From: Candidatus Hydrothermota bacterium
GTDB taxonomy: Bacteria > Hydrothermota > Hydrothermia > B15-G9 > DRBW01
DNA length: 62,395 nt
Reading direction: 5' to 3'
Assembly: GCA_021158525.1 (NCBI GenBank)
Contig: JAGGUL010000038.1
Span: 1 to 62,395 of the forward strand
A program made the position numbers and the translations under genes. Shown here in pieces: positions 3,732 through 20,030 of the stretch. Position 1 is the first letter of the stretch. Every line of letters begins with the position of its first letter. The notes below the pieces were generated by a model that saw only the letters and a program-made list of their open reading frames with translations, was not told the origin of the DNA and did not search any database.

Positions 3732-6700
3732 TAAGATTTTCCGTCCGGCGGCCTATAACCATATCGATGTTGATCGGGGTTCTCGTCGTGATGGGTCTCG
3801 TCTCCCTTCAGAAGCTCGGCCTGGACCTTCTGCCGGAACTCTCATTCCCTTCGGTCTCGGTTGTCACCACCTATCCTGGCGTTTCTCCCGAGGACATAGA
3901 GGAGATGATCACTAAGCCCGTGGAGGAAGCGGTGGCCACGGTGAGCGGCGTAAAGAAGCTGACATCCATGTCTATGGAGGGCCTTTCTGTCGTCACAGTT
4001 GAGTTTAACTGGGGAAAGAACCTGGACTTCGCCGCCCAGGACATAAGGGACAAGTTAGGGTTGATCGAGGACTATTTGCCGGAAGATGCGAGCAAACCGC
4101 TGGTTGTGAAATTCGATATAAGCATGATGCCCATCATGGAGGGCTACGCTTCTTATAAGGGGATGAGCCCTGAGGACGTCAGAAAGTTCATAGAGGACCA
4201 CGTTAAGCCCAGGCTCGAGAGGATAGACGGGGTGGCCTCAGTAACGGTTTACGGGGGCAGGGATAAGGAGATCTGGGTAGAGATCGACCGCGGCAAACTC
4301 GAGAACTTCGGCCTTTCACTTCAGGACGTGGTGACGTTCCTCCAGCTTCACAACCTCAACCTTCCTGCCGGCCACATCGTTGAGGGCAGCAAAGAGTATC
4401 TTTTGAGGGCAGTGGGTGAATTCAAGGAGCCCTCCGATATAAACGACGTCGCCGTTGGCTACACGAAGACCGGAACTCCCGTTTTCGTGAGGGACGTGGG
4501 AAGGGTCGTTGAGACCTTATCCGAGAGGAGAAATTACGTCACCGAGAACGGCAAGGAGACCGTCTTTTTTGACGTCTATAAGCAATCAGGAACCAACACA
4601 GTAAAGGTTCTGAATAAAGTGAACGAGGAGTTGAAGAGAATAAAGGCCGATTTCCCTGATTTTGAGCCTGTTGTAGTTTCCGATCAGGCGAAGTTCATAA
4701 AGAGAGCGACGGGCCGTACAACGAACAACGCTCTGGTGGGCGCCCTTCTAGCAGCCCTCATGATCTTTTTCTTCCTGCGAAACTGGAGGCCCACCCTCGT
4801 GGCAGCCCTCGCCATTCCCCTTTCGGTCATAATCACTTTCATCGTTATATACTTCGCCGGCTACACCCTTAACATAATGACCCTGGGAGGGATCGCCCTT
4901 GGCGTGGGAATGCTCGTGGACAACGCGGTCGTGGTAATAGAGAACATCTTCAGACATCTCGAGGAAGGCGAGGACAAGATGAAGGCCGCCATAGACGGAA
5001 CGCGTGAGGTCGGCACTGCCATAAGCGCTTCGACCTTCACCAATATAATCGTTTTCCTCCCCCTGATATTCGTGGGGGGCATTGTCGCTAAAGTGACTCA
5101 CGAGCTTGCCGTCACAGTGGCTGCGACCCTTTTGGCATCCCTTTTCGTTGCTGTCACCATAATTCCTTCGCTGGCCCGTGTCTTCTTCAAGGAGAGGACA
5201 AAAGAAGCTTACGTCAAGGCATTCGGCGAGGTCTGGTTCAATCCCATCAGGCGGTTTTACGAAAGAATTCTCAGAGCTGTACTGAGGCACAGGTTGTTTG
5301 CTGTTTTGGCAGCCGTGATCCTCTTCGTGGCCTCGATCTTGCTCATTCCCAAAGTAGGAGTGGAGTTCATGCCTCAGATAGACAGAGACTTCGGAATGAT
5401 TAGAGTCACCCTGCCCCCGGGGACTGATCTCGACGAGACGTTGAACTACATGCTTCAGCTCGAGGAAATAGCAAAAAGGGACCCCGACGTTAAGATCGTA
5501 GGAAGCATATTGGGAGAATTACAGGAAGCGGAATTGGCCTCGTTTATGGGCGGAACCGGGGTTAATTCGGGGATGCTGTATGTCGTCTTCGTGGACAAGA
5601 AATTCAGAAAGAGGCCTTCCTACGAGACGATTAACGAGATAGTAGCAAAGGTACCCAGCTACAAAGATGCCAAGGTTGAGGTCCTGGACATATCGAAGAT
5701 GGCGTTCCTGGGAGTTGGGGAGAAACCAGTCAACATCAAGATCTACGGGAAAGACCTGAACACCCTCAAAGAGCTTGCGATGAACATAAAGGACAGGATC
5801 GAGGGGACGCCTGGCCTCGTGAGCCCATCCATATCGCTCGAGGAGGCAAAGCCCGAGATCCTCATAAAGATCGACAGAAAAAAAGCGGCTTATTACGGTC
5901 TGACGCCCGTTCAGGTGGAGACAGAATTGCAAGCTGGGCTCCTGGGCAAGGTGGCCACCAGGATAAGGATCAAGGGCGAGGAGATCAACACGAGGGTCAA
6001 GCTGGAGGAGGATCAGACCAAGTTCATGGAGGATATAAAGAGCCTCAGCATCAAGACGCCGCTCGGTACCAGGGTTCCGCTCAAGGAGATAGCTGATATC
6101 TCCTATGGCCTCGGCCCGATCAGGATCGACCGCGAAAACCAGGTTCGTACTGTGGCGGTGGGCGCCAACGTCGCAGGGAGGACGACCGGTGAGGTGGTCA
6201 GGGACCTGAAGAAGAAGTTGGCCGGGTTCACTTTGCCCCCGGGATACACCATGGCCTTTAAGGGCGAATGGGAGGACATACAGGATATGCTGAAGAGCAT
6301 GGCTTTCGCCATCATGGCTGCCATCCTCCTGATCTACATGGTTATGGCGGCCCAGTTCGAATCTTTCAAGGATCCGTTCATAGTGATGTTCACGATGCCC
6401 CTTGCCATTATCGGCGTCGTCTTCTTCTTCCTGGTCACGAGGACGACGATATCCCTTCCCTCGCTCATGGGGACGCTGATCCTCGTGGGAATCGTGGTGA
6501 ACAACGCCATCGTCATGATCGATTACATCAAAAAACTCAGGCAGAGAGGACTTCCGGGGCTCGAGGCTGTGGTGAGGGGAGCTCAGGTGCGTCTCAGGCC
6601 GATCCTCATAACCTCACTGACCACGATCCTGGGAATGGTGCCAATGGCGTTGTCCCGCTCGGAAGGATCGGAGATGCGCGCGCCGATGGCCATCGCCGTT

Positions 6701-6790
6701 ATAGGAGGCCTTCTGACATCGACTTTCCTGACCCTATTTGTCATTCCCACCCTTTACACTTTCTTCGAGAGAATTAAAACGAAGGAATAA
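3728..6790 (+). CDS. RND efflux transporter permease (AcrB/HAE1 family)
   Basis: 1020 aa with a 12-TM AcrB-like pattern (MIRFSVRRPITISMLIGVLVVMG..., GIALGVGMLVDNAVVVIENIFRH, second half mirrored). ATGA overlap with the adaptor gene. Confidence 0.95.
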   Translation: MIRFSVRRPITISMLIGVLVVMGLVSLQKLGLDLLPELSFPSVSVVTTYPGVSPEDIEEMITKPVEEAVATVSGVKKLTSMSMEGLSVVTVEFNWGKNLDFAAQDIRDKLGLIEDYLPEDASKPLVVKFDISMMPIMEGYASYKGMSPEDVRKFIEDHVKPRLERIDGVASVTVYGGRDKEIWVEIDRGKLENFGLSLQDVVTFLQLHNLNLPAGHIVEGSKEYLLRAVGEFKEPSDINDVAVGYTKTGTPVFVRDVGRVVETLSERRNYVTENGKETVFFDVYKQSGTNTVKVLNKVNEELKRIKADFPDFEPVVVSDQAKFIKRATGRTTNNALVGALLAALMIFFFLRNWRPTLVAALAIPLSVIITFIVIYFAGYTLNIMTLGGIALGVGMLVDNAVVVIENIFRHLEEGEDKMKAAIDGTREVGTAISASTFTNIIVFLPLIFVGGIVAKVTHELAVTVAATLLASLFVAVTIIPSLARVFFKERTKEAYVKAFGEVWFNPIRRFYERILRAVLRHRLFAVLAAVILFVASILLIPKVGVEFMPQIDRDFGMIRVTLPPGTDLDETLNYMLQLEEIAKRDPDVKIVGSILGELQEAELASFMGGTGVNSGMLYVVFVDKKFRKRPSYETINEIVAKVPSYKDAKVEVLDISKMAFLGVGEKPVNIKIYGKDLNTLKELAMNIKDRIEGTPGLVSPSISLEEAKPEILIKIDRKKAAYYGLTPVQVETELQAGLLGKVATRIRIKGEEINTRVKLEEDQTKFMEDIKSLSIKTPLGTRVPLKEIADISYGLGPIRIDRENQVRTVAVGANVAGRTTGEVVRDLKKKLAGFTLPPGYTMAFKGEWEDIQDMLKSMAFAIMAAILLIYMVMAAQFESFKDPFIVMFTMPLAIIGVVFFFLVTRTTISLPSLMGTLILVGIVVNNAIVMIDYIKKLRQRGLPGLEAVVRGAQVRLRPILITSLTTILGMVPMALSRSEGSEMRAPMAIAVIGGLLTSTFLTLFVIPTLYTFFERIKTKE

Positions 6791-6815
6791 TTAACAGGAA
6801 CGGAATTTAATTGTG

Positions 6816-6852
6816 GTGGCGTCCCGATCGAAGATCGGGACGCCACTTTTTT
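6816..6852 (+). terminator. rho-independent terminator of the efflux operon
   Basis: Perfect 14-bp stem GTGGCGTCCCGATC-GAA-GATCGGGACGCCAC followed by TTTTTT. Confidence 0.8.
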
Positions 6853-6892
6853 ATAGAAATTCGTCGGGGCCAAAAAATTTGATGGCTTCGTT

Positions 6893-6927
6893 GGGGTCGG
6901 GTCGTGCAGGTTGCACGACCCGACCCC
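6893..6927. repeat. 35-nt GC-rich perfect palindrome, copy A
   Basis: GGGGTCGGGTCGTGCA-GGT-TGCACGACCCGACCCC (16-bp arms). Confidence 0.8.
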
Positions 6928-7148
6928 GTAGAACTTATTGTGGGCTAAGCTTTTAGACGGTATGATCATGTGCGTCAAGTTTATTATCGAGAACCCTTTG
7001 AAAATCAGAAACTTACAGGGTCATTCTGAAAGCTGTGTTTCGGTTGTAAGCTAATGGATAGAGAGGTCGAGCGCCCTCAAAGTAACCGGGGAAATTTATG
7101 CGCACATCCTTATTTTTGCTAACCCCTTGAATTCGAACTGATTAGATG

Positions 7149-7190
7149 GGGGTCGGGCCGTGCAAGTTGCACGGCCCGACCCCGATTTTT
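7149..7190. repeat. 35-nt GC-rich perfect palindrome, copy B, followed by a T-run (terminator-like on +)
   Basis: GGGGTCGGGCCGTGCA-AGT-TGCACGGCCCGACCCC then GATTTTT. Differs from copy A by T->C in the left arm and the matching A->G in the right arm. Confidence 0.8.
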
Positions 7191-7203
7191 CAGATGGCAA
7201 AAA

Positions 7204-7237
7204 TGGTGGGCGGGGGACTGAAGTCCCCCGCCCACCA
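7204..7237. other. long GC hairpin (unrelated sequence)
   Basis: TGGTGGGCGGGGGACT-GA-AGTCCCCCGCCCACCA, 16-nt complementary arms, no T-run. Confidence 0.6.
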
Positions 7238-7331
7238 TTCACCCATAACCGTTTTGAACGGCTGGACTTGTGAGGTTGCACCTGTCGCGTATTCTATTTA
7301 AAGTCGCGACTTAAAAAGGAGGAGTGAGTTT

Positions 7332-10300
7332 ATGAGGATCATACTCCTGTTTCTGCTGTCCCTGAGCGGCCGCTATGAGGGGCCAGTAACGCGAAGCCTG
7401 TCCCCGTTGCCGCCCTCGGCTATCGGTCACCTGTCCTTCGAAAAGTTCTCTCCGCCTATTATGCCACTTCCGGAGGAGCCAAATCCTCAAGGAAGCGGCT
7501 CGAGAAGGTGGAATTACCAGCCCGATGGCTCTTCGAGCTTTCCCGGCGATAATACGATTACCAATTTCCAGGGCATATTTTTCACGGGATGGTTTCCTCC
7601 CGACGTCCAGATCGCAGCAGGACCCGGTTATGTGGGCGAGGTAGTTAATTCGAATATAGCTTTTTATGATACTCTCGGCAACCTTCTGTACAGTAACACA
7701 CTTTACAATTTTTTCTCTCCGCTCTCGCCCTCCAACAATTTCATTTTCGACCCCAAGATTGCCTACGATCCTCTCGGAGGAAGGTGGTTGGTGCTGGCCC
7801 TTCAGCAGAACTCTAATAACAGCGAGTCAAATTATTATCTGGCAGTTTCTCAGAGCTCGAATCCCCTGGGAAGCTGGTATTATTACGCTCTGGATGCCAC
7901 TTTAGATGGGTCAACACCCTCAAACAACTGGGCCGATTACCCAGGGCTCGGGTTTAACGATTGGGGGATCTTTATAACTTCCAATCAGTTTGACTGGAAC
8001 GGGAGCTTTTCCTATCCGAAGCTCAGGGTTCTGGATAAAACCGCTGCCTACAACGGCACACTGAATTCCTGGCACGATTTCTGGAACCTCTCCTATTCTT
8101 CGTCCTGGAAACCCGCCCAGTCCGTGACAGCAACTCAAACCGAGTATATCCTCAGAAGCTATTGGAACGGCAGCAGCTATATCTACGGGTGGAAGGTAAC
8201 GGGATCGGCTTCCTCTCCGAGCATCTCGTCGAGGTATAATATCTCCGTGGCTCCTTACAACCCTCCTCCCAATGCTTCCCAGTACGGTGGCAGCACACCT
8301 CTCAATTCGGGCGATGCGAGAATGCAGGACGTCACATACAAAGATGGCTTTATCTTCGGGACTCTGGGAGAGGAGAATCCGCTTTATTCCGGGTACTGCG
8401 CCTCCAGGTATTTCAGGCTCGATACGACTTTCACCGTGATCGAGGACATTTCCTACGGCGACAGCGGATACAACTATATCTACCCGAGGGTTGCTCCCGC
8501 TAACTCTTTTGTGGCGATGGTCTTCACGCGTTGCGGTCCCCTCGAATTCGCGGGAGTGAGATATACGACAAAAGCTCTGAATGCGACGGCATTCGATCCC
8601 AGCACATTGGTGAAAGCTGGAGAAGCCTATTATGTTCAGCTCGATGGTTCCGGAAGAAATCGGTGGGGCGATTATTCGGGCGCTTACCTCGATCCTTCGG
8701 GCACAAGCGTCTGGGTGTGTGGGGAGTACGCATCCACAAACAACCAGTGGGGAACATGGGTGGCGAGGGTGATACATTCGTCGGGTGATACTGTGCCGCC
8801 GCCGGCTCCGGTTCTCCTGTCGCCTCCCAACATGATTCACACCAATGCTGCCCCGCTCAGTTTCATCTGGAGCTCGGTCCAGGACAGCTCAGGTATTCTT
8901 CGATATGAGCTTCAGTATTCGGTAGACCCATCTTTCAGCGGAGCAAGCACGATAAACGTTTCCGATACGACTTATTCCTTAACTCTCCCCGACACCATAT
9001 ATTACTGGAGGGTGAGAGCTGTCGACAGCGCTTATAACACGGGGAGCTGGTCAAACACGTGGCTCTTTACGCTGGATACCCATCCCCCTGGAGTTCCTGC
9101 CCTGCTTTATCCCCCGAACGGTTCATATCTTGCTACTGCAGATGTGACATTCCAATGGGGATCCGTTGCCGATCCGGGATCAGGCGCAAAACTTTCCCCT
9201 GTCCGCTATATTATCGAGATAAGCAGCATCTCAATGGGAAATACCATCTGCGACACGACCGATACCAACACATACCAGGTTGTGCTCGCGGAAGATATGT
9301 ACATGTGGCGAGTCAGGGCCTTCGACGTGGCAGGAAATGAAGGAGTTTTCAGCTCGCCTGATACCTTCGGTATAGACCTGATCCCTCCCAGCGTGCCCCT
9401 TCTCATATCGCCGGACGACGGTGCCGTTATAAACGATAGCACACCGGATTTCGTGTGGCACAGCTCCTCGGACAATTTAAGCGGCATCCATCACTACGAG
9501 GTCGAGGTTGCCCAGGATCCTTCCTTCGCAGGCTCGACTGTCTATCCTTCGACTGACACCGTTCTGACGATTCCATCAGCCCTCACGGATGGAATGTGGT
9601 ACTGGAGGGTGCTTGCCGTCGACAGCGCGGGGAATTATGGGAATCCCTCAGACTCCAGGAACTTCGAGGTCGATACCGATGTTCCCGATATTCCTGTCCT
9701 CATTTATCCGTCCGACGGAACCGTCACAGGATCGCTTCCCGACCTGATCTGGGGCGAGGTTCTCCGCTCAGCAGAAGAAGACGGGGACAAATCACAGGTC
9801 TTCTACACGCTTCAACTGAGCCCCGATACCTTCTCCGGAACTATCTGGACATATACGTCCCTTTATGACACTGTTTTCTCAGTTCCCGACAGTCTCTTTC
9901 CGCCCGATAGCACCTTCCGCATGTACTGGAGGGTAAGGGCCGAGGATGAAGCCGGGAATGTCGGGCAATTCAGCGGATCGAGAAGCTTTATTTACGATGT
10001 TGTGCCCCCCGAGATAGAGAGCACCGTGGTTTTCGGCGATACGCTCGTGGCACCCGACTCTGTGGCCGTGACGGCTGTCATCAGGGACTATTCCGGAATA
10101 TCGGTCGCTCTCTTACATTACAGGTTCAGCGGAGGAAACTGGATAACGGATACCATGGTCCAGAACGCCGGCGATCTTTACATGGGATATATTAATTTCG
10201 AGTTTGAAGACAGCACCGGTCCGGTGGAATACTACATAGAGGCTTTTGATAATTCCGATCCAGCCAATTCGTCCCGAGACCCGGACTCCGGCTATTATAC

Positions 10301-10598
10301 CTTTGTACATCTCCGGATTTGCGAGGCGAGCTCTGCGGGTGAGATGTTGATGTCCGGCCCATATCCCAATCCGGCATCTTCAGAGGTCGAGTTCAGTATC
10401 ACCGTTCCCGATAAGATAGCGAGCCTTTTCTCCATCTATGATGTGCGAGGCAGATTGCTATGGAAGTCGAAGGAGTTCCTCCAGCGCGGATACAACCGGA
10501 TAATTCTTAACGTCAGATTGAGCCCGGGGATCTATTTTGTAGTTGTGGATGTGCCCGGCAACGGTGCCATTCGCAGAAAGCTCGTGATAATGAGGTAG
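7332..10598 (+). CDS. large secreted protein: propeller-like N-terminal region, four tandem FN3/Ig-like modules, T9SS-type C-terminal sorting domain
   Basis: Strong SD (AAAAAGGAGGAG) before ATG 7332 and signal-like MRIILLFLLSLSG. C-terminus YPNPASSEVEFSI...SIYDVRGRLLW...GIYFVVVDVPGNGAIRRKLVIMR matches the Por/T9SS CTD pattern. Confidence 0.85.
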   Translation: MRIILLFLLSLSGRYEGPVTRSLSPLPPSAIGHLSFEKFSPPIMPLPEEPNPQGSGSRRWNYQPDGSSSFPGDNTITNFQGIFFTGWFPPDVQIAAGPGYVGEVVNSNIAFYDTLGNLLYSNTLYNFFSPLSPSNNFIFDPKIAYDPLGGRWLVLALQQNSNNSESNYYLAVSQSSNPLGSWYYYALDATLDGSTPSNNWADYPGLGFNDWGIFITSNQFDWNGSFSYPKLRVLDKTAAYNGTLNSWHDFWNLSYSSSWKPAQSVTATQTEYILRSYWNGSSYIYGWKVTGSASSPSISSRYNISVAPYNPPPNASQYGGSTPLNSGDARMQDVTYKDGFIFGTLGEENPLYSGYCASRYFRLDTTFTVIEDISYGDSGYNYIYPRVAPANSFVAMVFTRCGPLEFAGVRYTTKALNATAFDPSTLVKAGEAYYVQLDGSGRNRWGDYSGAYLDPSGTSVWVCGEYASTNNQWGTWVARVIHSSGDTVPPPAPVLLSPPNMIHTNAAPLSFIWSSVQDSSGILRYELQYSVDPSFSGASTINVSDTTYSLTLPDTIYYWRVRAVDSAYNTGSWSNTWLFTLDTHPPGVPALLYPPNGSYLATADVTFQWGSVADPGSGAKLSPVRYIIEISSISMGNTICDTTDTNTYQVVLAEDMYMWRVRAFDVAGNEGVFSSPDTFGIDLIPPSVPLLISPDDGAVINDSTPDFVWHSSSDNLSGIHHYEVEVAQDPSFAGSTVYPSTDTVLTIPSALTDGMWYWRVLAVDSAGNYGNPSDSRNFEVDTDVPDIPVLIYPSDGTVTGSLPDLIWGEVLRSAEEDGDKSQVFYTLQLSPDTFSGTIWTYTSLYDTVFSVPDSLFPPDSTFRMYWRVRAEDEAGNVGQFSGSRSFIYDVVPPEIESTVVFGDTLVAPDSVAVTAVIRDYSGISVALLHYRFSGGNWITDTMVQNAGDLYMGYINFEFEDSTGPVEYYIEAFDNSDPANSSRDPDSGYYTFVHLRICEASSAGEMLMSGPYPNPASSEVEFSITVPDKIASLFSIYDVRGRLLWKSKEFLQRGYNRIILNVRLSPGIYFVVVDVPGNGAIRRKLVIMR
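8787..10001 (+). repeat. four tandem ~100-aa coding modules inside the secreted protein
   Basis: Each module starts (V/H/I)PPxxPxL(L/I)xPxxG and ends YxWRV(R/L)AxDxAGNxG...F. Boundaries near aa 486, 584, 684, 783 and 890. Confidence 0.8.
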
Positions 10599-10754
10599 GG
10601 ATATCTCTGGCAGAAAGGGGACTAAAGCGACTCGGGTATTGTGCAGCTGTTCTTGTTTCCTATCCCTGGCCGAAAGTGATATTTTTATCACGGGATGAAG
10701 TTTGGCGTTAGCAACGGCACATTTTCGAAACAGAGGAGGATGGCCGGATAAAAA

Positions 10755-12060
10755 TTATCGGGTGGGATCAATAAGTCTTCCAAAGAATAGAATATTTCCG
10801 TTGTGTCTTTGCTGGATTATGAATATGAATGGGTGGTCCGCCAGGAAGATTCTTTTTTTTCTCTTTACCATCTCAGGAGTGCACGCTATAATCGTAGCAG
10901 TTGCAGTATAAGCTTTTGTGCCCTTTTCATTGACTTTAACGCAGGTATGGTGAATCACGGAACTGATAAATAAGCCTTCGTTATTCGTCATTCCTGAAAA
11001 ATCAGCCCTTTTGGCGTTAAATGCTGTCGGCATCCCCAGGGTTTTCAGGTGATCATTCAGGATATATTCTGCCTCTATTTCAAATTTCGGCAGAAATATG
11101 GCATCCAGTTTTGTTATTTGCATCTGGCTCTTATATTCAGCAAGTTTTCTTGCTGATAGAGGCTCTATGCTATCGAGGGATTCTGTGGGCAGAAGAATTA
11201 ACATAGAAATTCCGCCCAGATAGGGCAATTCCAGAATTTGTAGATTTCCGAGATCGGCATAATTAAATCCTTTTCTGTATGTGGTCGTGCGCATCATGGG
11301 GACTTTAACAACACTGTCTGGAGTTATTTTGAAATCCATTTCTTCTGTGTCTTCAGGATCGAATTGCTGCTTCCATGTCCCTGTAAAGTGAATGGTATTT
11401 GTGAGGACAAACATCGTCAGTTGATTTACACACCCCACGGGGATTAACCCCTTTATTCTTCCGCCAGTTTGTTTTTCTATAAACTTGTTGATAGTTAGTC
11501 TGGATTTTTCTGTTTTTTGCAAAGTCAAGGTTCTCTGCTTTTCCAGAATAATATCGTTTGACTATATTTTTATAGTCCTTCAGGAGTGGATAATCTCGTT
11601 GAACCCATAATGCATTTCCCATTCTCAGTTCGTATGCTCCATAGGTTTTCTTCAGATCGTTATAAATTATGGCGAAATTCTTTCTCAATTTATCGACTTT
11701 CGGGAAGTGGAAAACAGATTTGATCTCGTCTGCCGTTTCACCGTTAGCTCCTTCATAAGCCAGAGCTAAAGAGGAAAAAATACAAAATGGAGAGTACAAG
11801 ATATTGCCTTTTTCACGTTTTGCCAGCACAGCATACAGATCAAAAGCGAATTCATTGTTAGCGTGTGCCACGATTCCCTGTCCTGATGATATCGAAGCTT
11901 CGGCCATCGGCAGCCGTTTTGGCTTGTAGGGAGCGAAGATGGAAAAGGATGCACCTAAAAATATCAAATAAATGAGGTCCAATAAAGTCACGACAAAAAC
12001 TATCCTATAGAAAAGAGGCATAGATGGTGCTGTTATGGTTTTTAAAATTTTTCCCTTCAT
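10755..12060 (-). pseudogene. membrane-anchored serpin interrupted by a frameshift in an A-homopolymer
   Basis: ORF 11353..12072 carries a TM anchor (PLFYRIVFVVTLLDLIYLIFLGASFSIF) and the serpin N-half (NEFAFDLYAVLAK...NILYSPFCIFSSLALAYEGANGETADEI). ORF 10755..11528 carries the serpin C-half with hinge/RCL (NEKGTKAYTATATIIAC...FLADHPFIFII). The frames join at GCAAAAAAC (T6 on + at 11513-11518); A5 would read ..LDFAKTEKSRLTINKFIEKQT... Confidence 0.8.
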
Positions 12061-12918: not shown

Positions 12919-13458
12919 ATGGGGAATAACTTTCGTTCTACCACCGTAGTGGGCATCATCAGAGGGGGAAAGGCGTGTATAGCCTCTGACGGTCAGGTCA
13001 CTTTCGGCGATTCGGTCCTGAAACACAATGCGAAGAAGGTCAGGACCCTTTTCAAAGGAGAGGTTCTCGCCGGTTTCGCCGGCGGTGTGGCCGATGCCCT
13101 CGCCCTTTTCGAGAGAATGGAGAAGAAGTTGCAGGAATTCAACGGGAACCTGGAGAAAGCTGCCGTGGAGCTCGCGAGGGACTGGAGGTCCGATAAGGTG
13201 CTTCGCCAGCTCGACGCCGTGCTGGTGGTTCTCAACAGGGAGAGGGCTTTTATCATAACGGGGCGCGGGGATATCCTCGAACCTGATGATAAGATAGTCG
13301 TCATAGGATCGGGAAGCGGGATAGCCCTCGGCGTGGCCAGGGCGCTCGTGAGGCACACCGATCTCGATGCGAGGACCATATGCGAGGAGGCCATAAGGAT
13401 AGCTTCGGAGATTAACATCTACACAAACTCCAGCATATCGGTCCTCGAGCTGAATTAA
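12919..13458 (+). CDS. hslV: ATP-dependent protease subunit HslV
   Basis: TTVVGIIRGGKACIASDGQVTFGDSVLKHNAKKVR...GFAGGVADALALFERMEKKL...VIGSGSGIALGVARAL. N-terminal Thr nucleophile context. 179 aa. Confidence 0.92.
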   Translation: MGNNFRSTTVVGIIRGGKACIASDGQVTFGDSVLKHNAKKVRTLFKGEVLAGFAGGVADALALFERMEKKLQEFNGNLEKAAVELARDWRSDKVLRQLDAVLVVLNRERAFIITGRGDILEPDDKIVVIGSGSGIALGVARALVRHTDLDARTICEEAIRIASEINIYTNSSISVLELN

Positions 13459-13485
13459 CGCCGCAAATTACCGCTCGTAGGGCCG

Positions 13486-13836
13486 CTAACGCGGGCCCTG
13501 AGGTGTCCCCGGAAGAACAAAGGAAGCCAGGGCGTTAAAAGCTGTTGCGGCCCGTGTAGCTGTTTCCAGCCGATGTTGTGACACAATGGCAAGGTCAAAC
13601 AAATTCTTTGCAAAGACCTTCTTGAGGATTAGCCTCTCCCTGTCTTGGGAAAATACTTCGCCCAGGGCTATTACCATCATGTCGAGGGTATGAGTTCCGG
13701 CGTCTCCCCGCCAACGGCATATAAGGAAGAGATAGGCAATCCCGAAGATTATATCTTTTGAAAACAGACGAGTTTCTCTCCTTATCGACGCCGAGCGATC
13801 AGTGAGGTCGCATTTCTCGACTGCTCTGATGGACAT
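13486..13836 (-). CDS. hypothetical ORF, doubtful
   Basis: 116-aa ORF with no SD, no recognisable motif and atypical codons for this genome. Listed only because nothing better explains the region. Confidence 0.2.
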   Translation of the reverse strand: MSIRAVEKCDLTDRSASIRRETRLFSKDIIFGIAYLFLICRWRGDAGTHTLDMMVIALGEVFSQDRERLILKKVFAKNLFDLAIVSQHRLETATRAATAFNALASFVLPGTPQGPR

Positions 13837-14319
13837 CCGCCTGTTCCGCCGTGAAAGAGGGATCCCCTCGACGATGCCCTCCGGGGTCGTATCCTGATAG
13901 GGGGAATTCCCCGTAAGTCCTCAAGCCCGGGGGCTTTTCAGTATCTGGATTTTCATCAGTTCGCCTTGAAGTGTTCCCCTCGGTACTTTCCGGATCCCGA
14001 GATGTACTCTGTCGCTGACGTGCCTCTCGCCGGCTTCCTGTTCGTCGAGCTAATCGAGTTTGTCCTATGTGTTGGCGATGTGAATCCCCTGTTTTCCCTC
14101 AATGTCCTGAGCCGAATGAGGCGAGAGATCGTAAATCCTGGAAAGAGAAACTGCAGCTTCCCCTCTCGGAACATAGAGCTTGACGACATGGAACCAGCTT
14201 TTTCTATCTCGAAGTCCCTCTCGGTACGGACGAAGTCGGACAGTTGATATCCGAGCCTTCGTATGTTTTCAACCGGATGAGGAACTTGAGGGACAGGAGC
14301 TCTTTGGCAGGGCAGGATG

Positions 14320-14361
14320 GAAGAATAAAGGCCGGCGGCGGGTTTCCTGCGGAAACCCGCC
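14320..14361 (-). terminator. intrinsic terminator after the 38-aa ORF
   Basis: Minus strand GGCGGGTTTCC-GCA-GGAAACCCGCC (11-bp stem) followed by GCCGGCCTTTATTCTTCC. Confidence 0.6.
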
Positions 14362-14424
14362 ACCATTCCATTACTCCGCATTCGGCTGTGTTACCGTATC
14401 TGCACGAGCTTCAGCAGACCAGGC

Positions 14425-14541
14425 CTACCACGGGGGCCTGGGGCTTCCAGGCATGTCTATGGGAATGCCATCGGCCACCCACGGAGGTCTGGGGCTACCA
14501 GGCATGTCTATAGGTATGCCGTTCCTGGTTCCCACCTTCAT
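14425..14541 (-). CDS. 38-aa tandem-repeat peptide MKVGTRNGIPIDMPGSPRPPWVADGIPIDMPGSPRPPW
   Basis: Below the ORF-track cutoff. SD AAAAAGGAGGTG, 7 nt, ATG 14541; TAG stop at 14427..14425. The two 14-aa units differ at 5 nt, all synonymous in this frame. Has its own promoter and terminator. Confidence 0.7.
   Translation of the reverse strand: MKVGTRNGIPIDMPGSPRPPWVADGIPIDMPGSPRPPW
14428..14520 (-). repeat. tandem 51-nt-period duplication encoding GIPIDMPGSPRPPW twice
   Basis: GGCATACCTATAGACATGCCTGGTAGCCCCAGACCTCCGTGG versus GGCATTCCCATAGACATGCCTGGAAGCCCCAGGCCCCCGTGG. Confidence 0.9.
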
Positions 14542-14622
14542 AGCAGCACCTCCTTTTTACTTCCTTCTCCCGCCTCAGAAGCAGGGTCACGTCCTTCGGC
14601 GGGCAAAGGTCTAACTGGTCTT

Positions 14623-14651
14623 ATTTTACAAGGGTCACCCTGTCATGTCAA
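14623..14651 (-). promoter_or_regulatory. consensus-like sigma70 promoter of the 38-aa ORF
   Basis: Minus strand TTGACA-TGACAGGGTGACCCTTG (17 nt)-TAAAAT. Predicted leader about 75 nt. Confidence 0.65.
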
Positions 14652-14820
14652 CGGAAAAAATCAAAAAAGTGTGTCATTTTGTCACATTAAAAGGGGATTT
14701 GGCAGAATTAATACATTGATACCGAGGGACTTATGTTGGAGTAACAATTTGTAACAAAATTTTTCAGCTGATAATTTCAGGATAAATTTGCAAACTTATC
14801 TTCGAGGGGTTTGGTTGAAA

Positions 14821-14841
14821 AGTGTAACAGATGGTTACACT
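14821..14841. promoter_or_regulatory. perfect inverted repeat, candidate regulator-binding (UAS-like) site
   Basis: AGTGTAAC-AGATG-GTTACACT. Related GTAACA copies at 14741-14746 and 14751-14756 (10-nt period). Confidence 0.4.
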
Positions 14842-14909
14842 ACGAGAAGGGTGAAATGGCCAGATCTACTGTGATTACAATGAGTTAGCAGATTCCGACG
14901 AGATCCCCG

Positions 14910-17900
14910 TCACTCCTCCTTTTTCTGGCGGTATTCAAGGGGGTCGATCCCGTGTTTCTTTATCAGCCTGTAAAGCTGTTCCCTATGAATAGAGAGGATC
15001 TCAGCGGCCCGTTTTATGTTCCCCTTCGCTGCCTGCAGGGCGTTCTGTATCCTTCTTTTCTCGAGGGCGGCCTTTTCCTCTTTTAAGGAAGCGGGAAGTG
15101 TCGTGTTGAGTGTCACCCTCGGATCGAGGTCGTCTATGTCGACCATTATGCCCTTGGCAAGCAGCACCGCCCTTTCAACTATGTTCTGGAGCTCCCTTAT
15201 GTTGCCGGGCCAGGTGTATTTTATGAGGGAATCCATGGCACGTGTCGTGAATCCCTTGAGCTCCTTTCCGAAATCTTTGGCATATCCCTTGAGGAAGTGC
15301 TCTGCCAGGATGGGAATGTCCTCGGCGCGCTCCCTGAGAGGAGGTATCTCGATCTCCATATCCAGAAATCGGCGGAGCCTCGGTGATATCGATTCCTCGA
15401 CGATTTTCCCCTCCTTTGAAGTCCCGAAGATAAAGGTTACTTTCGCCTTTCTCGGGGTGGCCTCTCCCACCCTGAAGAAGGTCTCGGTCTCTATGAGGGA
15501 GGCTATCTTTTCCTGGATCTCGAGGGGCACGTTGGTCATCTCGTCGATGTAAAGGGTACCTTCGTGGGCCTCTTCCACGAGTCCCGTCTTGTCGGCCACA
15601 GCCCCGGGAAAAGCATCTTCCTTGTGGCCGAAGAGCTCCGATTCGAGGAGATGCTGGGGAAGCGTGGCCGTCTCCAGCTTTCTGAAATGCCCTTCCTTTC
15701 CGGCTTTCATGTGTATAAACCGGGCGAGGGCGGTCTTTCCGGCGCCGGCTTCTCCCTTGATGATGGCGGCCCTGAGCTTTTCCGCCCTCTTCTCGATGGA
15801 GCGGTAGATTTCCAGCATCCTGGGAGATTTTCCGATGACGATGGGGGAGGGTGTCTCGTCCAGAAGGGCCTCGCGGAGGTATATGTTCTCCTCCTCGATC
15901 CTCCTGAAGGCCAGGGTCTTGTCTATTGTGGCTCCCAGTATGTAGGCCACCGCCATCAGGAAGTCCTTCTCCTCCTCGGAGAATATATCGGATGAGACCC
16001 TGCTGTCCAGATAAATCGTTCCGATGACCTTCCCGTTTGATATGAGCGGAACGCAGAGGAGTGACCTTATCTTATTCAAAAGGACGCTCTTTGAACCGGC
16101 GAACCTGGGATCCTGCAGGGCATCCTGGGAGAAAATGGGCTTTTCCGTGAGGGTTGCCTCGCTTATCACTGTCCTGGATATTCTTCGGGCATCTTTGAGG
16201 GTATCCTTGTCCATCTGTCTCCCGGCCGCCATGACGAATTTGCCCTCGTCGGACAGGAACAGGACTCCCCTCTCGGCCCCCGTTATCTCTATTACGACGT
16301 CCAGGAGAATGTCGAAGAAGTTCTCCTTGTCGAGAAGGCTGTTGATCACCTCGCTGACCCTGTAGAGGGCCTTCAGATATTTGTCGGGCGGGGCTCCGCT
16401 CCCCACTTTCACCAGGGCTATCTTGAGGAGCCTCTCCTTGAGTTTGGAGACTTTCTCGGCAAAGGCTTTGGAACCTATGGCATTAAAGGTCTCCTGGGAC
16501 TCCTCGAGGAGGTTGAAGATATTTCTTAAGGTTTCCCTCTCGCCCTCCTTTTTCTCGAGGTGATCTATCTCCATCGAGGCCAGCTCCATTTTGGCCCTGG
16601 CCAGCTGGAATTTGGCGTCCAATTTTTCGAAAAGTTCTATGCTGTTCTCGTAATGCTTTTTGCCCTCCTCATAATCCCCATTGATCATGAGGGCTTTTGC
16701 CAGGGCTCTCTGTCCCAGGGCGAGCTCCTTCCCTCCACCATTGTCCTTGAGGAGCTCCAGGGCTTTTTCGGCGTTCTTCAGGGCCCTCTCGGCGTCGCCG
16801 AGTTTGGCGAATAGCTCCGCGAATCCGAGATAGATGTAAAAGCGAGTCTTGTTGTCCTCTATCTCCCTTCTCAGGGCGAAGGCCTTCTCAAGGAATTCCC
16901 TGGCCAGGTCGGGCTGGTCCGCATCGAGATAAACCTGTGAGAGGTTGTAGTAAAGCGATGCCAGCCATCGCGGGTCCCCATATTTCTCGAAAACGGCCAG
17001 GCTCTTCTTTAGGTAGTAGATGCTCTTCTCAAAATCGCCGAGCTCGTGGGAAAGCGTGCCGAGGTTGGCGTTTATCACCCCTATGCTGCTTTCCCACGTG
17101 TCCTGTCTCTCGTATAGCTCCAGGGCCCTCTCGTAAAGTTCCCGGGCTTTCTTGAGGTCACCCTTTTCGTAGAGGATGTTCCCCAGATCGTTGAATATCT
17201 TCGCTTCGTCGGCAGCTGAGCCAATTTTTGAGGCATAGGAAAGGGCCTCTCTCATGACCTCCTCGGCCTTGGACAGATTCCCGAATTCCCTGTAAAGGCT
17301 GCCGAGCGTGAAAAGCTCCGATATCAGGCTGTACAGGTCATAATTCTTTTTCTGCAGCTCGAGACTGATTTTAATGTGTTCCTCGGCCTCCCGAAGATTT
17401 CCTGTATCTCTCTTTATTATGCCCAGGTGATGGTGAAGCCTCTCCTCGATAACCGGGTCTCTCTTTTCCTTGACGAGCTTCAGCCCCTTTTCTGCATAAG
17501 AAAGGGCCTCTTTGAACTTTCTCTCGTAATAGTAAGAAACGCTCAGGGAGTAGTAGATCTTCTCGAACCCATACCCTCCCTTTTCCTGAGACAGCTTGGC
17601 GGCGAAGTTGAAGTAGCTTCTGGCTTTCTTGTAATCGCCCTGGCTCATATAGGCCCACCCAATCTCGTTCAACACGTCGATCTGAGCCGGCGAGTCGAGG
17701 TCAGAGAGTATTTTGTGGGCCTCCTCGAAGGAATCGAAAGCCTCCCAGATTTCCTCTCTTTTCAGGCGAAGTTTCCCTATGTGCCTCAGTACCTCGGCCT
17801 TTTTCTCGGGTTCGTCCTTATAATAGAGAAGAGCGTCCCTGTAATGTTTTAACGCCCCCTCGAAATACCCGTTTCTCTCCTCGAGCCAGGCGACTTCCAG

Positions 17901-20030
17901 GAGGAGTTCTTTTTTGTCTTCCTCTTTACCCAGTTCGTCCGCCAGGTCGAGGGCTGTGATGAAGAAATCCAGGGCTTTGGGAAGGGAGTGAAGTTCTTTG
18001 GCCCTTCTCCCCGCTCTGGTCAGGTAATAATAGGACCTGTCTTTCTCGCCGCTTTCGGTGTAATGGTAGGCCAGCGAAAAGAGGAGAGATTCGTCCCCCG
18101 TCTCGTTCAGCCTGTTCTCGAGGTATCTTGCGATTTTCTTGTGTAGTTTTCTCCTCTCCTTTTCGGGTATCCTTTCAACTATGATATCGGCCAGGATCTG
18201 GTTTTCAGGAAGGTAGGACCCCTTCTTGTCGGGTGCCACTCTGAGGTAGCCGCATGTCCTTAGCTTTTCCAGGCTCGTATGAATCTCCGGTTTCTCACCG
18301 AAAAGGCCTTCGAGAACGTCTATATCCAGCGGCTCCTTCAGCAGCGCAGAGACCTTCATTATCTCGAGTTCCAGATTTTCCAGTTTGGAGATCTTCTGTT
18401 TGAGGAGATCGTGAATTCCCTGGGGGATGTCTATTTCCTCCAGGGCCTCTTCGTCGAATTCCCAGCCGGTCTCGCCGAAAACGAGGACATCGTGCTCGTA
18501 CAGGTCATAGAGGAGCTCGGTGATGAGGTAAGGGTTTCCGCCGCTTCTCTCCCGCAGCCATTCGGCCAGTCGGGAGAGATTGGTGCCTCTTCCGAGGACT
18601 GCCTTTACTATCTGGGAGGTCTCCTTCAGTGAGAGGGGCGGAAGGACCATCTTGGTGACAAAGGGCTTCTTCTCCAGTTCGTTAAGCCAGTCGCTGAAAC
18701 CGTTTTGTGTGCTCGATGAGTAGGCCCCGGCGATAAATATAGGGTCATCGCCTATGCTGTGGACGAGATAGCGCAGGAAGGCGAGGTCGTCAGAGGATGC
18801 GAGGCTGAGGTCATCGATGATGAGGACGGTTATTTTTCTCTGTGCGTTCTCCTTTTCCCGAAGTTTCTCGATTATGCTCTCGAAAAATTTGAACTTGGCC
18901 GATTCATCGTCTGAGGTGGGGCGTTCCACGTCGCCGACGAAATCGAGAAAACTCTCCACGAGGGGCGAGGCTTTGCCCTCATAGGATTTCAGAGGGATAA
19001 ATAGCACCCTGTGCCCCTCGAGCTGGGATATGAACTTGATCTCTTCGAGGAACCTCGTTTTACCTATGCCCTGTTCGCCCTCGACGAAGAAGGATTGCCC
19101 CTTGCCCGTTTTGGCAAGCCTCATGAGGTCCTTGACGGAATCCATCAGGGATTCCCTTCCCACGAAGGGCGAAGACAGGATAAAGCCTTTTCTCGCCTCC
19201 TGAAAGCGAGTCGGAGGCTCTACGTCGAATTTGTCCACGACCATCTTCACCACCTCAAAGGCCGAATTGGGCCTGAGGGTGGGTGAGCCGTGGAGCAACT
19301 TCAGAACTATGTCCTCAAATTCCTTGGGAACCTGGGAATTGAGGTCACGGGGAGGCCTTATGTCCCTGTAAAACTGCTTCTTCAGGAGCTCCCCCATGGT
19401 CTTCGCCGTGAAGGGCTTCTGACCGGTCAGTATCTCGTAGAGGACGACCCCGAGGGAATAGAGGTCAGAACGGGGATCAGGCTTCTGGCCGGTGAAGAGT
19501 TCGGGAGCTATGTAACCGAGGGTTCCTCCCGCTGTGCCAGAGAGCTCAAGCTCGTCGGCGAAACCGAAGTCGAGCAGCTTGATTTCGTGGGAATCCTTTC
19601 CCTTCTCGATGACCAGTATGTTCTCAGGCTTTATGTCGCTGTGGATCATGCCCTTGGAATGGATGTAATCCAGCACATCGAGTATGTCGAGCATCACTCG
19701 CAGGAGGCTTGGGGAGAACCCATGAAGCACCTTGGTGATGGGAGCACCTTCCACGAACTCCATCGCCATGTAAGAGCGATCCTCGCCGAGATAGCCGAAG
19801 TCGTAGACCTTGACTATTCCGGGGTGGTTTAAGTGAATCAGTATGTTGAACTCTCTCGACAGCCTTTTTCTGAACTCGTTTCCGGGATTGGAGATCTTGA
19901 GAGCGACGACTCTGTTGTTTCTCAGGTCTTTCGCTTTGAATACGGAACCGAGCTCCCCTTCCCCCACAGGCTCCACGATCTCGTAATCGCCGATCAAGGA
20001 CCCTCTTTTTACTTTAAGGACAGAGCCCAT
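14910..20030 (-). CDS. 1706-aa multidomain regulator: Hanks Ser/Thr kinase + STAND/AAA_16 P-loop ATPase + TPR array + GAF + sigma54-interaction-type AAA+ + Fis-type HTH
   Basis: Kinase motifs VALKIS, HSDIKPENIL, DFG, GYIAPE (aa ~15-275). Walker A GEQGIGKT and LIIDDLS (aa ~320-410). TPR-like repeats aa ~640-1170. GAF (GAERGVLFLSDEG...LCVPLISNGKVIGTIYLDSR, aa ~1217-1375). EBP core GEAGAGKTALARFIH...ESELFGHKEDAFPGA...WPGNIRELQN. HTH NIKRAAEILSIHREQLYRLIKKHGI. Confidence 0.9.
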   Translation of the reverse strand: MGSVLKVKRGSLIGDYEIVEPVGEGELGSVFKAKDLRNNRVVALKISNPGNEFRKRLSREFNILIHLNHPGIVKVYDFGYLGEDRSYMAMEFVEGAPITKVLHGFSPSLLRVMLDILDVLDYIHSKGMIHSDIKPENILVIEKGKDSHEIKLLDFGFADELELSGTAGGTLGYIAPELFTGQKPDPRSDLYSLGVVLYEILTGQKPFTAKTMGELLKKQFYRDIRPPRDLNSQVPKEFEDIVLKLLHGSPTLRPNSAFEVVKMVVDKFDVEPPTRFQEARKGFILSSPFVGRESLMDSVKDLMRLAKTGKGQSFFVEGEQGIGKTRFLEEIKFISQLEGHRVLFIPLKSYEGKASPLVESFLDFVGDVERPTSDDESAKFKFFESIIEKLREKENAQRKITVLIIDDLSLASSDDLAFLRYLVHSIGDDPIFIAGAYSSSTQNGFSDWLNELEKKPFVTKMVLPPLSLKETSQIVKAVLGRGTNLSRLAEWLRERSGGNPYLITELLYDLYEHDVLVFGETGWEFDEEALEEIDIPQGIHDLLKQKISKLENLELEIMKVSALLKEPLDIDVLEGLFGEKPEIHTSLEKLRTCGYLRVAPDKKGSYLPENQILADIIVERIPEKERRKLHKKIARYLENRLNETGDESLLFSLAYHYTESGEKDRSYYYLTRAGRRAKELHSLPKALDFFITALDLADELGKEEDKKELLLEVAWLEERNGYFEGALKHYRDALLYYKDEPEKKAEVLRHIGKLRLKREEIWEAFDSFEEAHKILSDLDSPAQIDVLNEIGWAYMSQGDYKKARSYFNFAAKLSQEKGGYGFEKIYYSLSVSYYYERKFKEALSYAEKGLKLVKEKRDPVIEERLHHHLGIIKRDTGNLREAEEHIKISLELQKKNYDLYSLISELFTLGSLYREFGNLSKAEEVMREALSYASKIGSAADEAKIFNDLGNILYEKGDLKKARELYERALELYERQDTWESSIGVINANLGTLSHELGDFEKSIYYLKKSLAVFEKYGDPRWLASLYYNLSQVYLDADQPDLAREFLEKAFALRREIEDNKTRFYIYLGFAELFAKLGDAERALKNAEKALELLKDNGGGKELALGQRALAKALMINGDYEEGKKHYENSIELFEKLDAKFQLARAKMELASMEIDHLEKKEGERETLRNIFNLLEESQETFNAIGSKAFAEKVSKLKERLLKIALVKVGSGAPPDKYLKALYRVSEVINSLLDKENFFDILLDVVIEITGAERGVLFLSDEGKFVMAAGRQMDKDTLKDARRISRTVISEATLTEKPIFSQDALQDPRFAGSKSVLLNKIRSLLCVPLISNGKVIGTIYLDSRVSSDIFSEEEKDFLMAVAYILGATIDKTLAFRRIEEENIYLREALLDETPSPIVIGKSPRMLEIYRSIEKRAEKLRAAIIKGEAGAGKTALARFIHMKAGKEGHFRKLETATLPQHLLESELFGHKEDAFPGAVADKTGLVEEAHEGTLYIDEMTNVPLEIQEKIASLIETETFFRVGEATPRKAKVTFIFGTSKEGKIVEESISPRLRRFLDMEIEIPPLRERAEDIPILAEHFLKGYAKDFGKELKGFTTRAMDSLIKYTWPGNIRELQNIVERAVLLAKGIMVDIDDLDPRVTLNTTLPASLKEEKAALEKRRIQNALQAAKGNIKRAAEILSIHREQLYRLIKKHGIDPLEYRQKKEE

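Follow-up and report, generated by a model that had tools for sequence, protein, structure and literature searches.

Tandem proline-rich micro-proteins encoded beside a giant signalling regulator in WOR-3/Hydrothermota-type bacteria

In the RRNPP systems of peptide-receptor signalling, for which a five-criterion signature has been formulated, a small secreted propeptide and a TPR (tetratricopeptide repeat) receptor of 250-500 amino acids (aa) are encoded by adjacent genes (PMC10075063). Tandem copies of a pheromone are known from duplicated Phr propeptides (PMC11343458), leaderless communication peptides have been described as well (PMC10518010), and atypical enhancer-binding proteins (EBPs) without the GAFTGA motif act on sigma-70 promoters (PMC6158489). 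Here we describe a locus that recalls each of these in part, located on the minus strand at positions 14651-14320 of contig JAGGUL010000038.1 (assembly GCA_021158525.1, Candidatus Hydrothermota bacterium); the whole analysed stretch of 62,395 nucleotides is referred to below as the window. Judging from its pattern of substitution, the locus encodes a genuinely selected 38-aa peptide that consists of two identical 14-residue proline-rich units, and its neighbour is the gene of a giant multidomain regulator:

14425-14541, minus strand: open reading frame (ORF) of 38 codons plus TAG (ATG at 14541, TAG at 14427-14425), product MKVGTRN-GIPIDMPGSPRPPW-VAD-GIPIDMPGSPRPPW
14479-14520, minus strand: repeat unit 1, GIPIDMPGSPRPPW, 42 nt
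14428-14469, minus strand: repeat unit 2, identical to unit 1 in protein, with five synonymous differences
14910-20030, minus strand: giant regulator gene, 1706 aa, with Pfam matches to Ser/Thr kinase, AAA_16 (STAND), MalT-like TPR, GAF, sigma-54-type AAA+ and HTH_8

The full 38-aa product is MKVGTRNGIPIDMPGSPRPPWVADGIPIDMPGSPRPPW, and the ORF is not extendable upstream because an in-frame TAA lies five codons before the ATG. All five differences between the units fall on synonymous third positions (Nei-Gojobori: 5 synonymous and 0 non-synonymous; S = 9.7, N = 32.3), an outcome with a chance of about (9.7/42)^5 = 7e-4. The same holds for the units of two related loci, with synonymous/non-synonymous differences within one genome of 5/0 in the window, 6/0 in L026 and 4/0 in L035. 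Given between-unit dS (synonymous divergence) of 0.64-1.3 and dN (non-synonymous divergence) of 0 in these three, the duplication appears to be old and both copies to be under strong purifying selection at the protein level. Look-ups of exact and near-exact matches, a scan with degenerate DNA and a profile search yielded six alleles of the ORF from related metagenome contigs, and in none of them is the start, frame, length or stop altered. An earlier reading of this DNA, made from the letters alone (hereafter the sequence-only reading), had taken the synonymous-only differences as the mark of selection on a small translated peptide and had proposed frame conservation and dN/dS as a check; both the frame in six alleles and the dN of 0 between units bear this out, and the pattern extends to other lineages.

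The same reading had considered that the repeat might be part of a longer conserved plus-strand gene, and this did not turn out to be the case. The overlapping plus-strand ORF is split into different frames in L022, and the 144-aa plus-strand ORF was rejected as a gene, being broken in L022 and having no Pfam match. In a three-way alignment, conservation is high from upstream of the promoter through the terminator and collapses directly after it; identity between the window and L026 is 89.7% in the ORF, 88.6% in the 3' untranslated region (UTR) with the terminator, 76.5% in the leader and 24% beyond the terminator. The sequence-only reading gave two units of 42 nt each; the DNA repeat itself is longer, with a length of 48 nt and a period of 51 nt, and continues beyond the stop codon (TGG-TAG-GCC versus TGG-GTG-GCC). 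The evolutionary support is unusually clean, with old duplicate units that are identical in protein and not in DNA.

To place the gene among relatives, loci were fetched for the regulator orthologues, seven regulator lineages being sampled. A tandem proline-rich peptide gene was found in five of the seven (four of six besides the window's), and wherever it is present its position is downstream of the regulator gene, with both on one strand. L026, whose regulator is 93% identical, carries a two-unit gene missed by the gene-calling pipeline. L035, a fragment with the synteny of the window, encodes the 36-aa product MPVGTRH-GVPIDIPDPKPPW-KAD-GVPIDIPDPKPPW. L025 (regulator 71% identical) has a one-unit gene, MVRYGVPISLPGEPKPPWK, of 19 aa that shares the promoter, leader hairpin and Shine-Dalgarno sequence with the window and is followed by a terminator. 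Inspected by eye, the DNA past its stop codon (11476-11520, GGAGGCTGTGGTATAGCC...) resembles what a frameshift would leave of a second unit (the L035 counterpart is GATGGTGTGCCTATAGAT), which suggests that the second unit was lost in the L025 lineage. More distant relatives encode longer products with N-termini that, by eye, resemble signal peptides: 79 aa with three copies of DEGSPVPGNPKPPWRL[AV] in L027 (regulator 40% identical), and 75 aa with four copies of GIPQPPKPVPP in L030/L031 (34%). Among the four units of L030, all 10 codons vary and 37 of the 37 pairwise differences are at third positions.

The peptides form, as far as motif and context tell, a small family with one to four units with the motif G[IV]P[IF]x[MLI]P(G)xP[RK]PPW or the relatives PGNPKPPW and GIPQPPKPVPP, and the gene lies directly downstream of orthologues of one giant regulator in WOR-3/Hydrothermota-type bacteria. 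Cluster mates of the regulator are named candidate division WOR-3 or Candidatus Hydrothermae. The proposed check of co-occurrence with homologues of the 1706-aa protein gave linkage in the window clade, L035, L025, L027 and L030, and none at L028 and L029. Likewise, the remark that no described family has this repeat held in searches of Pfam, NCBIfam, PDB, Rfam and the literature. The family is thus previously undescribed: micro-proteins built from tandem repeats, whose genes accompany that of a giant signalling regulator in an uncultured phylum.

The peptides have no Pfam or NCBIfam match and no PDB sequence match; the Pfam family Apidaecin matched below threshold only (E 0.44, 11.2 bits versus a cutoff of 23.1) and with the L035 peptide alone. 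Rfam, searched at gathering and permissive thresholds, gave no family, the best sub-threshold match being ROSE_2 on the opposite strand (22 bits versus 65). ARAGORN and TRF reported nothing relevant at the locus; TRF overlooks the repeat because there are fewer than two copies. A padded 38-aa query matched only itself and one variant of 95% identity, the 79-aa L027 peptide matched itself only among 5.8 billion proteins, and the profile search of 1.84 billion cluster representatives added one true member, P0147; beyond the members described here, the family is extremely rare in these collections. Two other candidates were rejected, P0146 as a repetitive junk translation and P0148 because its contig ends there and its neighbour is an unrelated response regulator. 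The degenerate-DNA scan of 185,579 species genomes, a collection that apparently lacks the home species, returned two single-unit chance matches in long ORFs (Mycobacterium and Faecalibacterium), which were discarded, and that of metagenomes one true two-unit locus, L022, together with 14 single-unit chance matches.

The small gene appears to have a complete set of transcription and translation signals:

14623-14651, minus strand: sigma-70-type promoter, TTGACA (14651-14646), 17 nt, TAAAAT (14628-14623), matching 11 of 12 consensus positions
14563-14609, minus strand: predicted stem-loop in the 5' leader of about 75 nt, arms CCUUUgCCCGCC / GGCGGGaGAAGG, leaving the Shine-Dalgarno sequence unpaired
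14547-14555, minus strand: Shine-Dalgarno sequence AAGGAGGTG, with 7 nt between GGAGG and ATG
14382-14417, minus strand: 36-nt block of the 3' UTR, CTGCTGAAGCTCGTGCAGATACGGTAACACAGCCGA, invariant in all window-clade alleles
14320-14365, minus strand: intrinsic terminator, GC-rich hairpin at 14365-14333 with 15 pairs, followed by the U-rich tail GCCTTTATTCTTC

The promoter, leader hairpin, Shine-Dalgarno sequence, 38-codon ORF and terminator all lie where the sequence-only reading had placed them on the minus strand, with two corrections of detail: the terminator hairpin, given as 11 bp, scored 15 pairs, and the 7-nt gap to the start codon runs from GGAGG, the gap after AAAAAGGAGGTG being 5 nt. 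The absence from the window peptide of a signal peptide (there is no hydrophobic segment after MKVGTRN-GIP) and of Cys was also confirmed. The label "unannotated" holds only in the sense that the product is nameless, as 14 public metagenome contigs list a 38-aa gene call.

Consensus matches in the region are not above chance when taken alone, with two promoters observed versus 1.1 expected and two terminators versus 2.1; the two elements are credible because they are conserved in relatives and not because they match a consensus. Both promoter hexamers and the 17-nt spacer are kept in the window clade, L035 and L025, and the transcription start, at about 14616, was derived from the promoter. 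The leader stem-loop is found at the equivalent place in the window, L026, L035 and L025, with the Shine-Dalgarno sequence free in each, and its arms differ among lineages (CCCGCC/GGYGGG, CCCCUCC/GGGAGGG and CCCCGUGG/CCACGGGG); single leaders fold weakly better than shuffles (z -0.9 to -1.7). Across all relatives, AAAAAGGAGGTGC and its spacing to the ATG are invariant, and GAATACGGAGTG, just 5' of the terminator, is also kept in L035. The consensus fold of the terminator in four lineages has 15 pairs, four with compensatory double changes and none broken. Taken together, these conserved elements mark 14651-14320 as an independent, conserved transcription unit, which is separated from the regulator gene, its neighbour on the same strand, by 369 nt.

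Downstream, the roughly 860 nt between the terminator and the convergent hslV gene (13459-14319) have no conserved ORF; the corresponding gap in L026 is only 466 nt long, and the two do not align. Two minus-strand ORFs there, of 116 and 141 aa, were rejected as genes, not being conserved and having a best Pfam match at E 0.14, below cutoff; the 116-aa ORF (13486-13836, minus strand) is a called gene in L001-L006, is missing from L022 and L026 and has no Pfam match. The hslV gene (12919-13458, plus strand), which encodes a proteasome-type peptidase subunit and is convergent with the small gene, has no adjoining hslU and is preceded by a thioredoxin/AhpC-like gene, a synteny kept in the window clade and L035. 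Further away, the serpin gene at 10755-11528 (minus strand) encodes 255 aa in the window population (L001-L006) versus 422 aa in L026 (13614-14882); the window gene may be truncated, or its start may have been called differently. The gene neighbourhoods of the window, L027 and L030 differ, and the regulator alone is constant.

At least 403 homologues of the regulator were found at E <= 1e-50, with source names that include WOR-3, Zixibacteria, Calditrichaeota and others. The GAFTGA motif of its sigma-54-type AAA+ domain (residues ~1470-1476) reads EDAFPGA in the window and ENAFPGA in L026, is unrecognisable in L025, and is intact in the 32-40% identical orthologues of L027, L028 and L030. Its degeneration in the window, L026 and L025 suggests that promoter use in this lineage changed from sigma-54 to sigma-70. 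No sigma-54-like -24/-12 (GG-N10-GC) element was detected in 14300-14910 of the window, where three operator-like palindromes precede the sigma-70-type promoter, with positions relative to the predicted transcription start:

14822-14840: operator-like palindrome 1, GTGTAAC-N5-GTTACAC, centre at about -215
14739-14757: operator-like palindrome 2, TTGTTAC-N5-GTTACTC, centre at about -132
14669-14687: operator-like palindrome 3, ATGTGAC-N5-GACACAC, centre at about -62, 17 nt before the -35 hexamer

The pattern TGTNAC-N5-GTNACA, with one mismatch at most, occurs three times in the 62-kb window versus 0.38 expected, each time between the stop codon of the regulator and the -35 hexamer. Palindrome 1 is kept in L007, L022, L026, L035 and L025. 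L035 has three such sites upstream of the equivalent promoter. So does L025, where they lie at about -62, -134 and -229; the site nearest the promoter is again 17 nt from the -35 hexamer, and the DNA between the sites has diverged. The L030 locus, in which GAFTGA is intact, has a sigma-54-like TGGAACTGTTATTGCA (TGGAAC-N5-TTGCA) 34 nt upstream of the small ORF, a different palindrome, ACCAATT-N5-AATTGGT, and a different recognition helix in the helix-turn-helix (HTH) domain; the window, L025 and L027 have in common the HTH helix HREQLYRLIKK and boxes of the TGTAAC type. This covariation of box type and HTH helix points to the giant regulator as the binder of the boxes. In L027, region 10212-10718 contains three palindromes of the TGTAAC type, spaced by 61 and 83 nt, as well as the sigma-54-like TGGCGTCTTTTTTGCT. 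A second small gene of that locus (~74 aa, MMMSAKPMVNRIPSS...) has no counterpart in the window or at the other loci by tblastn. On the evidence of boxes and helices, the regulator probably controls the promoter of the small gene, and the latter is fairly likely to be its dedicated transcriptional target. The window regulator, with its sigma-54 contact motif lost, would act in the manner of TyrR, from three TGTAAC-N5-GTTACA boxes on a sigma-70 promoter.

The sensory part of the regulator includes a TPR region (TPR_12 at 1.4e-47, and TPR_MalT, in Pfam). TPR residues 901-1200 account for 56 of the 111 differences between the window and L026 regulators, and in 958-1018 roughly half of the positions are changed. 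The TPR segment at 16899-17540 (minus strand, residues ~831-1044) is a replacement hot spot between strains. In comparison with L026, both dN and dS are elevated in residues 944-1044 and dS is saturated. A structural model of residues 831-1230 is a TPR superhelix (pLDDT 91) with the best TM-scores to MalT domain III (1hz4, 0.71/0.77) and the peptide-binding LGN TPR. LGN-type TPRs hold extended peptides in their groove. The fold search does not discriminate, as MalT, LGN, OGT and designed TPRs all match; thus, the model is compatible with peptide binding without singling it out. RNPP_C exceeded its cutoff in the orthologue P0004 only (30.3 versus 26.5 bits), which may be a generic TPR cross-match. 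In L001 the regulator gene is split (4513-9632, products of 473 and 1149 aa) by a frameshift or an assembly error; it is intact on other contigs of the same population.

The units of the peptide change in a mirrored fashion. The residue that is I in the window is F in all other alleles, in both units. At position x of PGxPRPPW there are two allele series, S/S, S/N, N/N and S/S, S/R, R/R, and since the Arg codons of the R/R allele differ between the units (AGA and AGG), that step looks like an independent parallel substitution rather than simple gene conversion. Between the window and L035, the changes I to V, M to I, S to D and R to K and the deletion of one codon are each found in both units, while the units differ from each other at synonymous sites. 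Whichever process is responsible, the units are kept identical in protein.

How these observations fit together is less certain. Tentatively, and at somewhat less than even chances, we favour the reading that every unit represents the same peptide signal or ligand, that the TPR sensor of the regulator reads it, and that the two genes form a feedback cassette working like RRNPP systems, a kind of pairing known so far mainly from Gram-positive bacteria. The TPR superhelix would recognise the repeat unit as a signal or ligand, and the regulator would drive the small gene, closing a peptide-receptor feedback like that of RRNPP or leaderless-peptide quorum-sensing pairs. Every copy would have to fit one receptor pocket, so that substitutions would be mirrored across the units, and matching to the receptor would account for the strain variation at x = S/N/R and in the TPR segment. 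The sequence-only reading had offered a two-core RiPP-like (ribosomally synthesized and post-translationally modified peptide) or signalling peptide as one option; its signalling half fits best, because of the one to four copies, the identical units, the single variable residue, the signal peptides of distant relatives, the TPR neighbour and the candidate operators, and its RiPP half is disfavoured. A broader version, in which pheromone-receptor systems extend beyond Gram-positives to thermophilic diderms of WOR-3/Hydrothermota, tandem peptides are read by TPRs, and x and the mosaic TPR co-diversify into "pherotypes", is doubtful.

Several observations weigh against a signal read by the TPR. 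The peptides of the window clade lack a signal peptide as well as hydrophobic or cationic character, and no exporter or importer is linked to the small gene; since WOR-3 bacteria have diderm cells (PMC12285271) and the regulator appears to be cytoplasmic, an exported peptide would need re-import. At L028 and L029 (GC-rich, regulators 32-34% identical), no such ORF was found in the gene-less downstream gaps of 800-930 nt, and in L027 the boxes and the sigma-54-like promoter precede the second, unrelated small gene and not the PPW gene. Homology of the GIPQPPKPVPP unit of L030 to the PPW units is no more than plausible, on the basis of common context and short motifs. Because its dS is saturated, TPR segment 944-1044 is better described as a mosaic, deeply diverged cassette than as demonstrated positive selection; in strain P0130 (98% identical), too, changes are concentrated there, 22 of 33 being in residues 831-1044. 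The mirrored changes of the units could have arisen by micro-gene-conversion followed by synonymous drift. Finally, conservation of the 3' UTR equals that of the ORF, which may point to a function of the RNA itself.

Much of the evidence on regulation would also suit an effector that is output only, that is, a peptide that the regulator switches on and does not sense and that acts outside the cell or at the envelope, for instance by being aimed at competitors, by forming part of the surface or matrix, or by serving another protein as a multivalent polyproline ligand. The adjacency of regulator and target with candidate operator sites, the sigma-54-like promoter of L030, the signal-peptide-like N-termini in L027 and L030 and the very strong Shine-Dalgarno sequence agree with such an effector, and antagonistic co-evolution, too, typically leaves variation at a single residue. 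However, the window-clade peptides lack an export signal and cationic or amphipathic character, the Apidaecin match (E 0.44) is far under the cutoff, and an effector alone leaves unexplained why the sole conserved neighbour is a TPR-sensor regulator with a hypervariable TPR; we regard this alternative as unlikely. The conservation of the untranslated parts raises instead the prospect that the RNA is the main actor, a small or dual-function RNA of about 300 nt whose conserved 3' UTR and hairpins would work through base pairing or the binding of proteins, with the ORF secondary. Between the window and L026, the 3' UTR and terminator are 88.6% identical versus 62-75% at neighbouring 4-fold sites (neighbouring genes differ at 37-38% of such sites overall and at ~26% in the adjacent 3' third of the regulator gene), only 2 of the 19 4-fold sites in the ORF differ, the 36-nt block 14417-14382 does not vary within the window clade, and the predicted fold of the transcript is more stable than those of shuffled sequences (z = -4.0). 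For the low dS of the ORF (0.33), selection at the RNA level need not be invoked, since the adjacent 3' third of the regulator gene has the same value (0.34), and the argument for RNA-level constraint from synonymous divergence was mostly withdrawn. Given also that there is no Rfam match, that in L025, L027 and L030 the nucleotides and UTRs diverge while the peptide motif and frame persist, and that variation of the units is limited to third positions, a primary role of the RNA appears quite improbable.

Another option of the sequence-only reading, an arrest or EF-P-dependent regulatory peptide, would place the function in the stalling of the ribosome at RPPW, which might set the stability or processing of the peptide's own mRNA or 3' UTR. 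In reporter assays no motif depended on EF-P more strongly than PPW (PMC5885033), [KR]PPW does not vary across the window clade, L035, L025 and L027 (four of the five lineages), the ORF stops right after PPW and the 3' UTR is conserved. The arrangement expected in cis is missing, with a conserved terminator followed by unalignable DNA and then the convergent hslV and no downstream gene as a target; the residues far from PPW, that is, the whole unit, are equally constrained in every copy; and the L030 units lack PPW, and the signal peptides of relatives point to a released product. Stalling as the function thus appears very improbable, and it might be a side property. The tandem identical cores resemble multi-core RiPP precursors, and the window allele has an S-P site beside a gene with a Hanks-type kinase domain, so that the peptide had also been proposed as a substrate or decoy of that kinase. 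Comparison of the neighbourhoods among lineages revealed no modifying enzyme, protease or transporter conserved around the gene, the peptide has no Cys and the unit no conserved Ser or Thr, and the Ser of the S-P site is N, R, E or D in alleles and relatives; both a RiPP precursor and a phospho-substrate or decoy are therefore highly improbable.

Small genes of this type often escape annotation or receive no name. Should the peptide prove to be the ligand or the dedicated output of the regulator, it would be the first functional handle on the widespread giant kinase/EBP regulators, peptide-receptor signalling would extend to an uncultured diderm phylum, and the repeat units would be a natural case of mirrored co-evolution, accessible with short synthetic peptides. 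Experiments have become conceivable now that a cultured WOR-3 strain exists (PMC12285271).

Among known peptides, apidaecin-type proline-rich antimicrobial precursors are similar in their PRPP/IPQP-like core and tandem identical units and differ in that the peptides described here are non-cationic (one Asp and one Arg per unit, net charge ~0), bacterial and linked to a regulator. Ribosome arrest peptides include SecM, TnaC and the RAPP-type ApdA and ApdP. The short ORF that ends in R-P-P-aromatic right before the stop is reminiscent of these, whereas here there is no downstream gene in cis, and the whole unit, not the C-terminus alone, is conserved and duplicated.

On the side of the regulator, the combination of AAA_16 with a MalT-like TPR sensor and the best TM-score to MalT domain III resembles MalT and other STAND proteins. 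MalT, in contrast, senses a sugar and has a LuxR-type HTH, and here a linked peptide is the candidate ligand and an EBP-type AAA+ domain is joined to HTH_8. The regulator may be comparable as well to the kinase-STAND fusion PknK of M. tuberculosis. The features of a typical sigma-54 EBP target are present at L030 and not in the window, which has no -24/-12 element and reads EDAFPGA. With TyrR, PhhR and VpsR, the window regulator shares the degenerate GAFTGA, a C-terminal Fis-type HTH and palindromes upstream of a sigma-70-type promoter (PMC6158489). It differs from them in its giant multi-sensor N-terminus (kinase, STAND, TPR and GAF), and its binding to the boxes and its sigma dependence are putative. 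The TGTAAC-N5-GTTACA boxes resemble the TyrR box TGTAAA-N6-TTTACA, with a spacing of N5 versus N6.

Measured against the RRNPP signature, the propeptide is within the range of 10-100 aa (38 aa in the window; 19, 36, 75 and 79 aa in relatives), and the receptor-candidate and propeptide genes are adjacent in the window clade, L035, L025, L027 and L030. The window peptide carries no mark of secretion (Sec, or PptAB/SHP-type), and the N-termini of the L027 and L030 peptides are signal-peptide-like; the regulator, of 1706 aa, is far larger than a receptor of ~250-500 aa; and its TPRs form a superhelix in the model, with peptide binding putative. The cassette is therefore not a member of the RRNPP family. 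Unlike in the RRNPP(A) systems (Rap-Phr, NprR-NprX, PlcR-PapR, PrgX and AimR-AimP), the receptor candidate carries, in the same polypeptide, a Ser/Thr kinase, a STAND ATPase, GAF and a sigma-54-type AAA+ domain, its host belongs to the diderm WOR-3 and not to the Bacillota, and the units are proline-rich and of 11-17 residues; any maturation, export and Opp-type import would be putative. What the cassette has in common with the RRNPP(A) systems is a small peptide gene, presumably well translated, beside a predicted cytoplasmic TPR/HTH regulator, one to several copies of the unit, strain variation at a single residue, operator-like sites by the peptide gene, and the occurrence of both Sec-type leaders (L027 and L030) and leaderless forms (the window clade).

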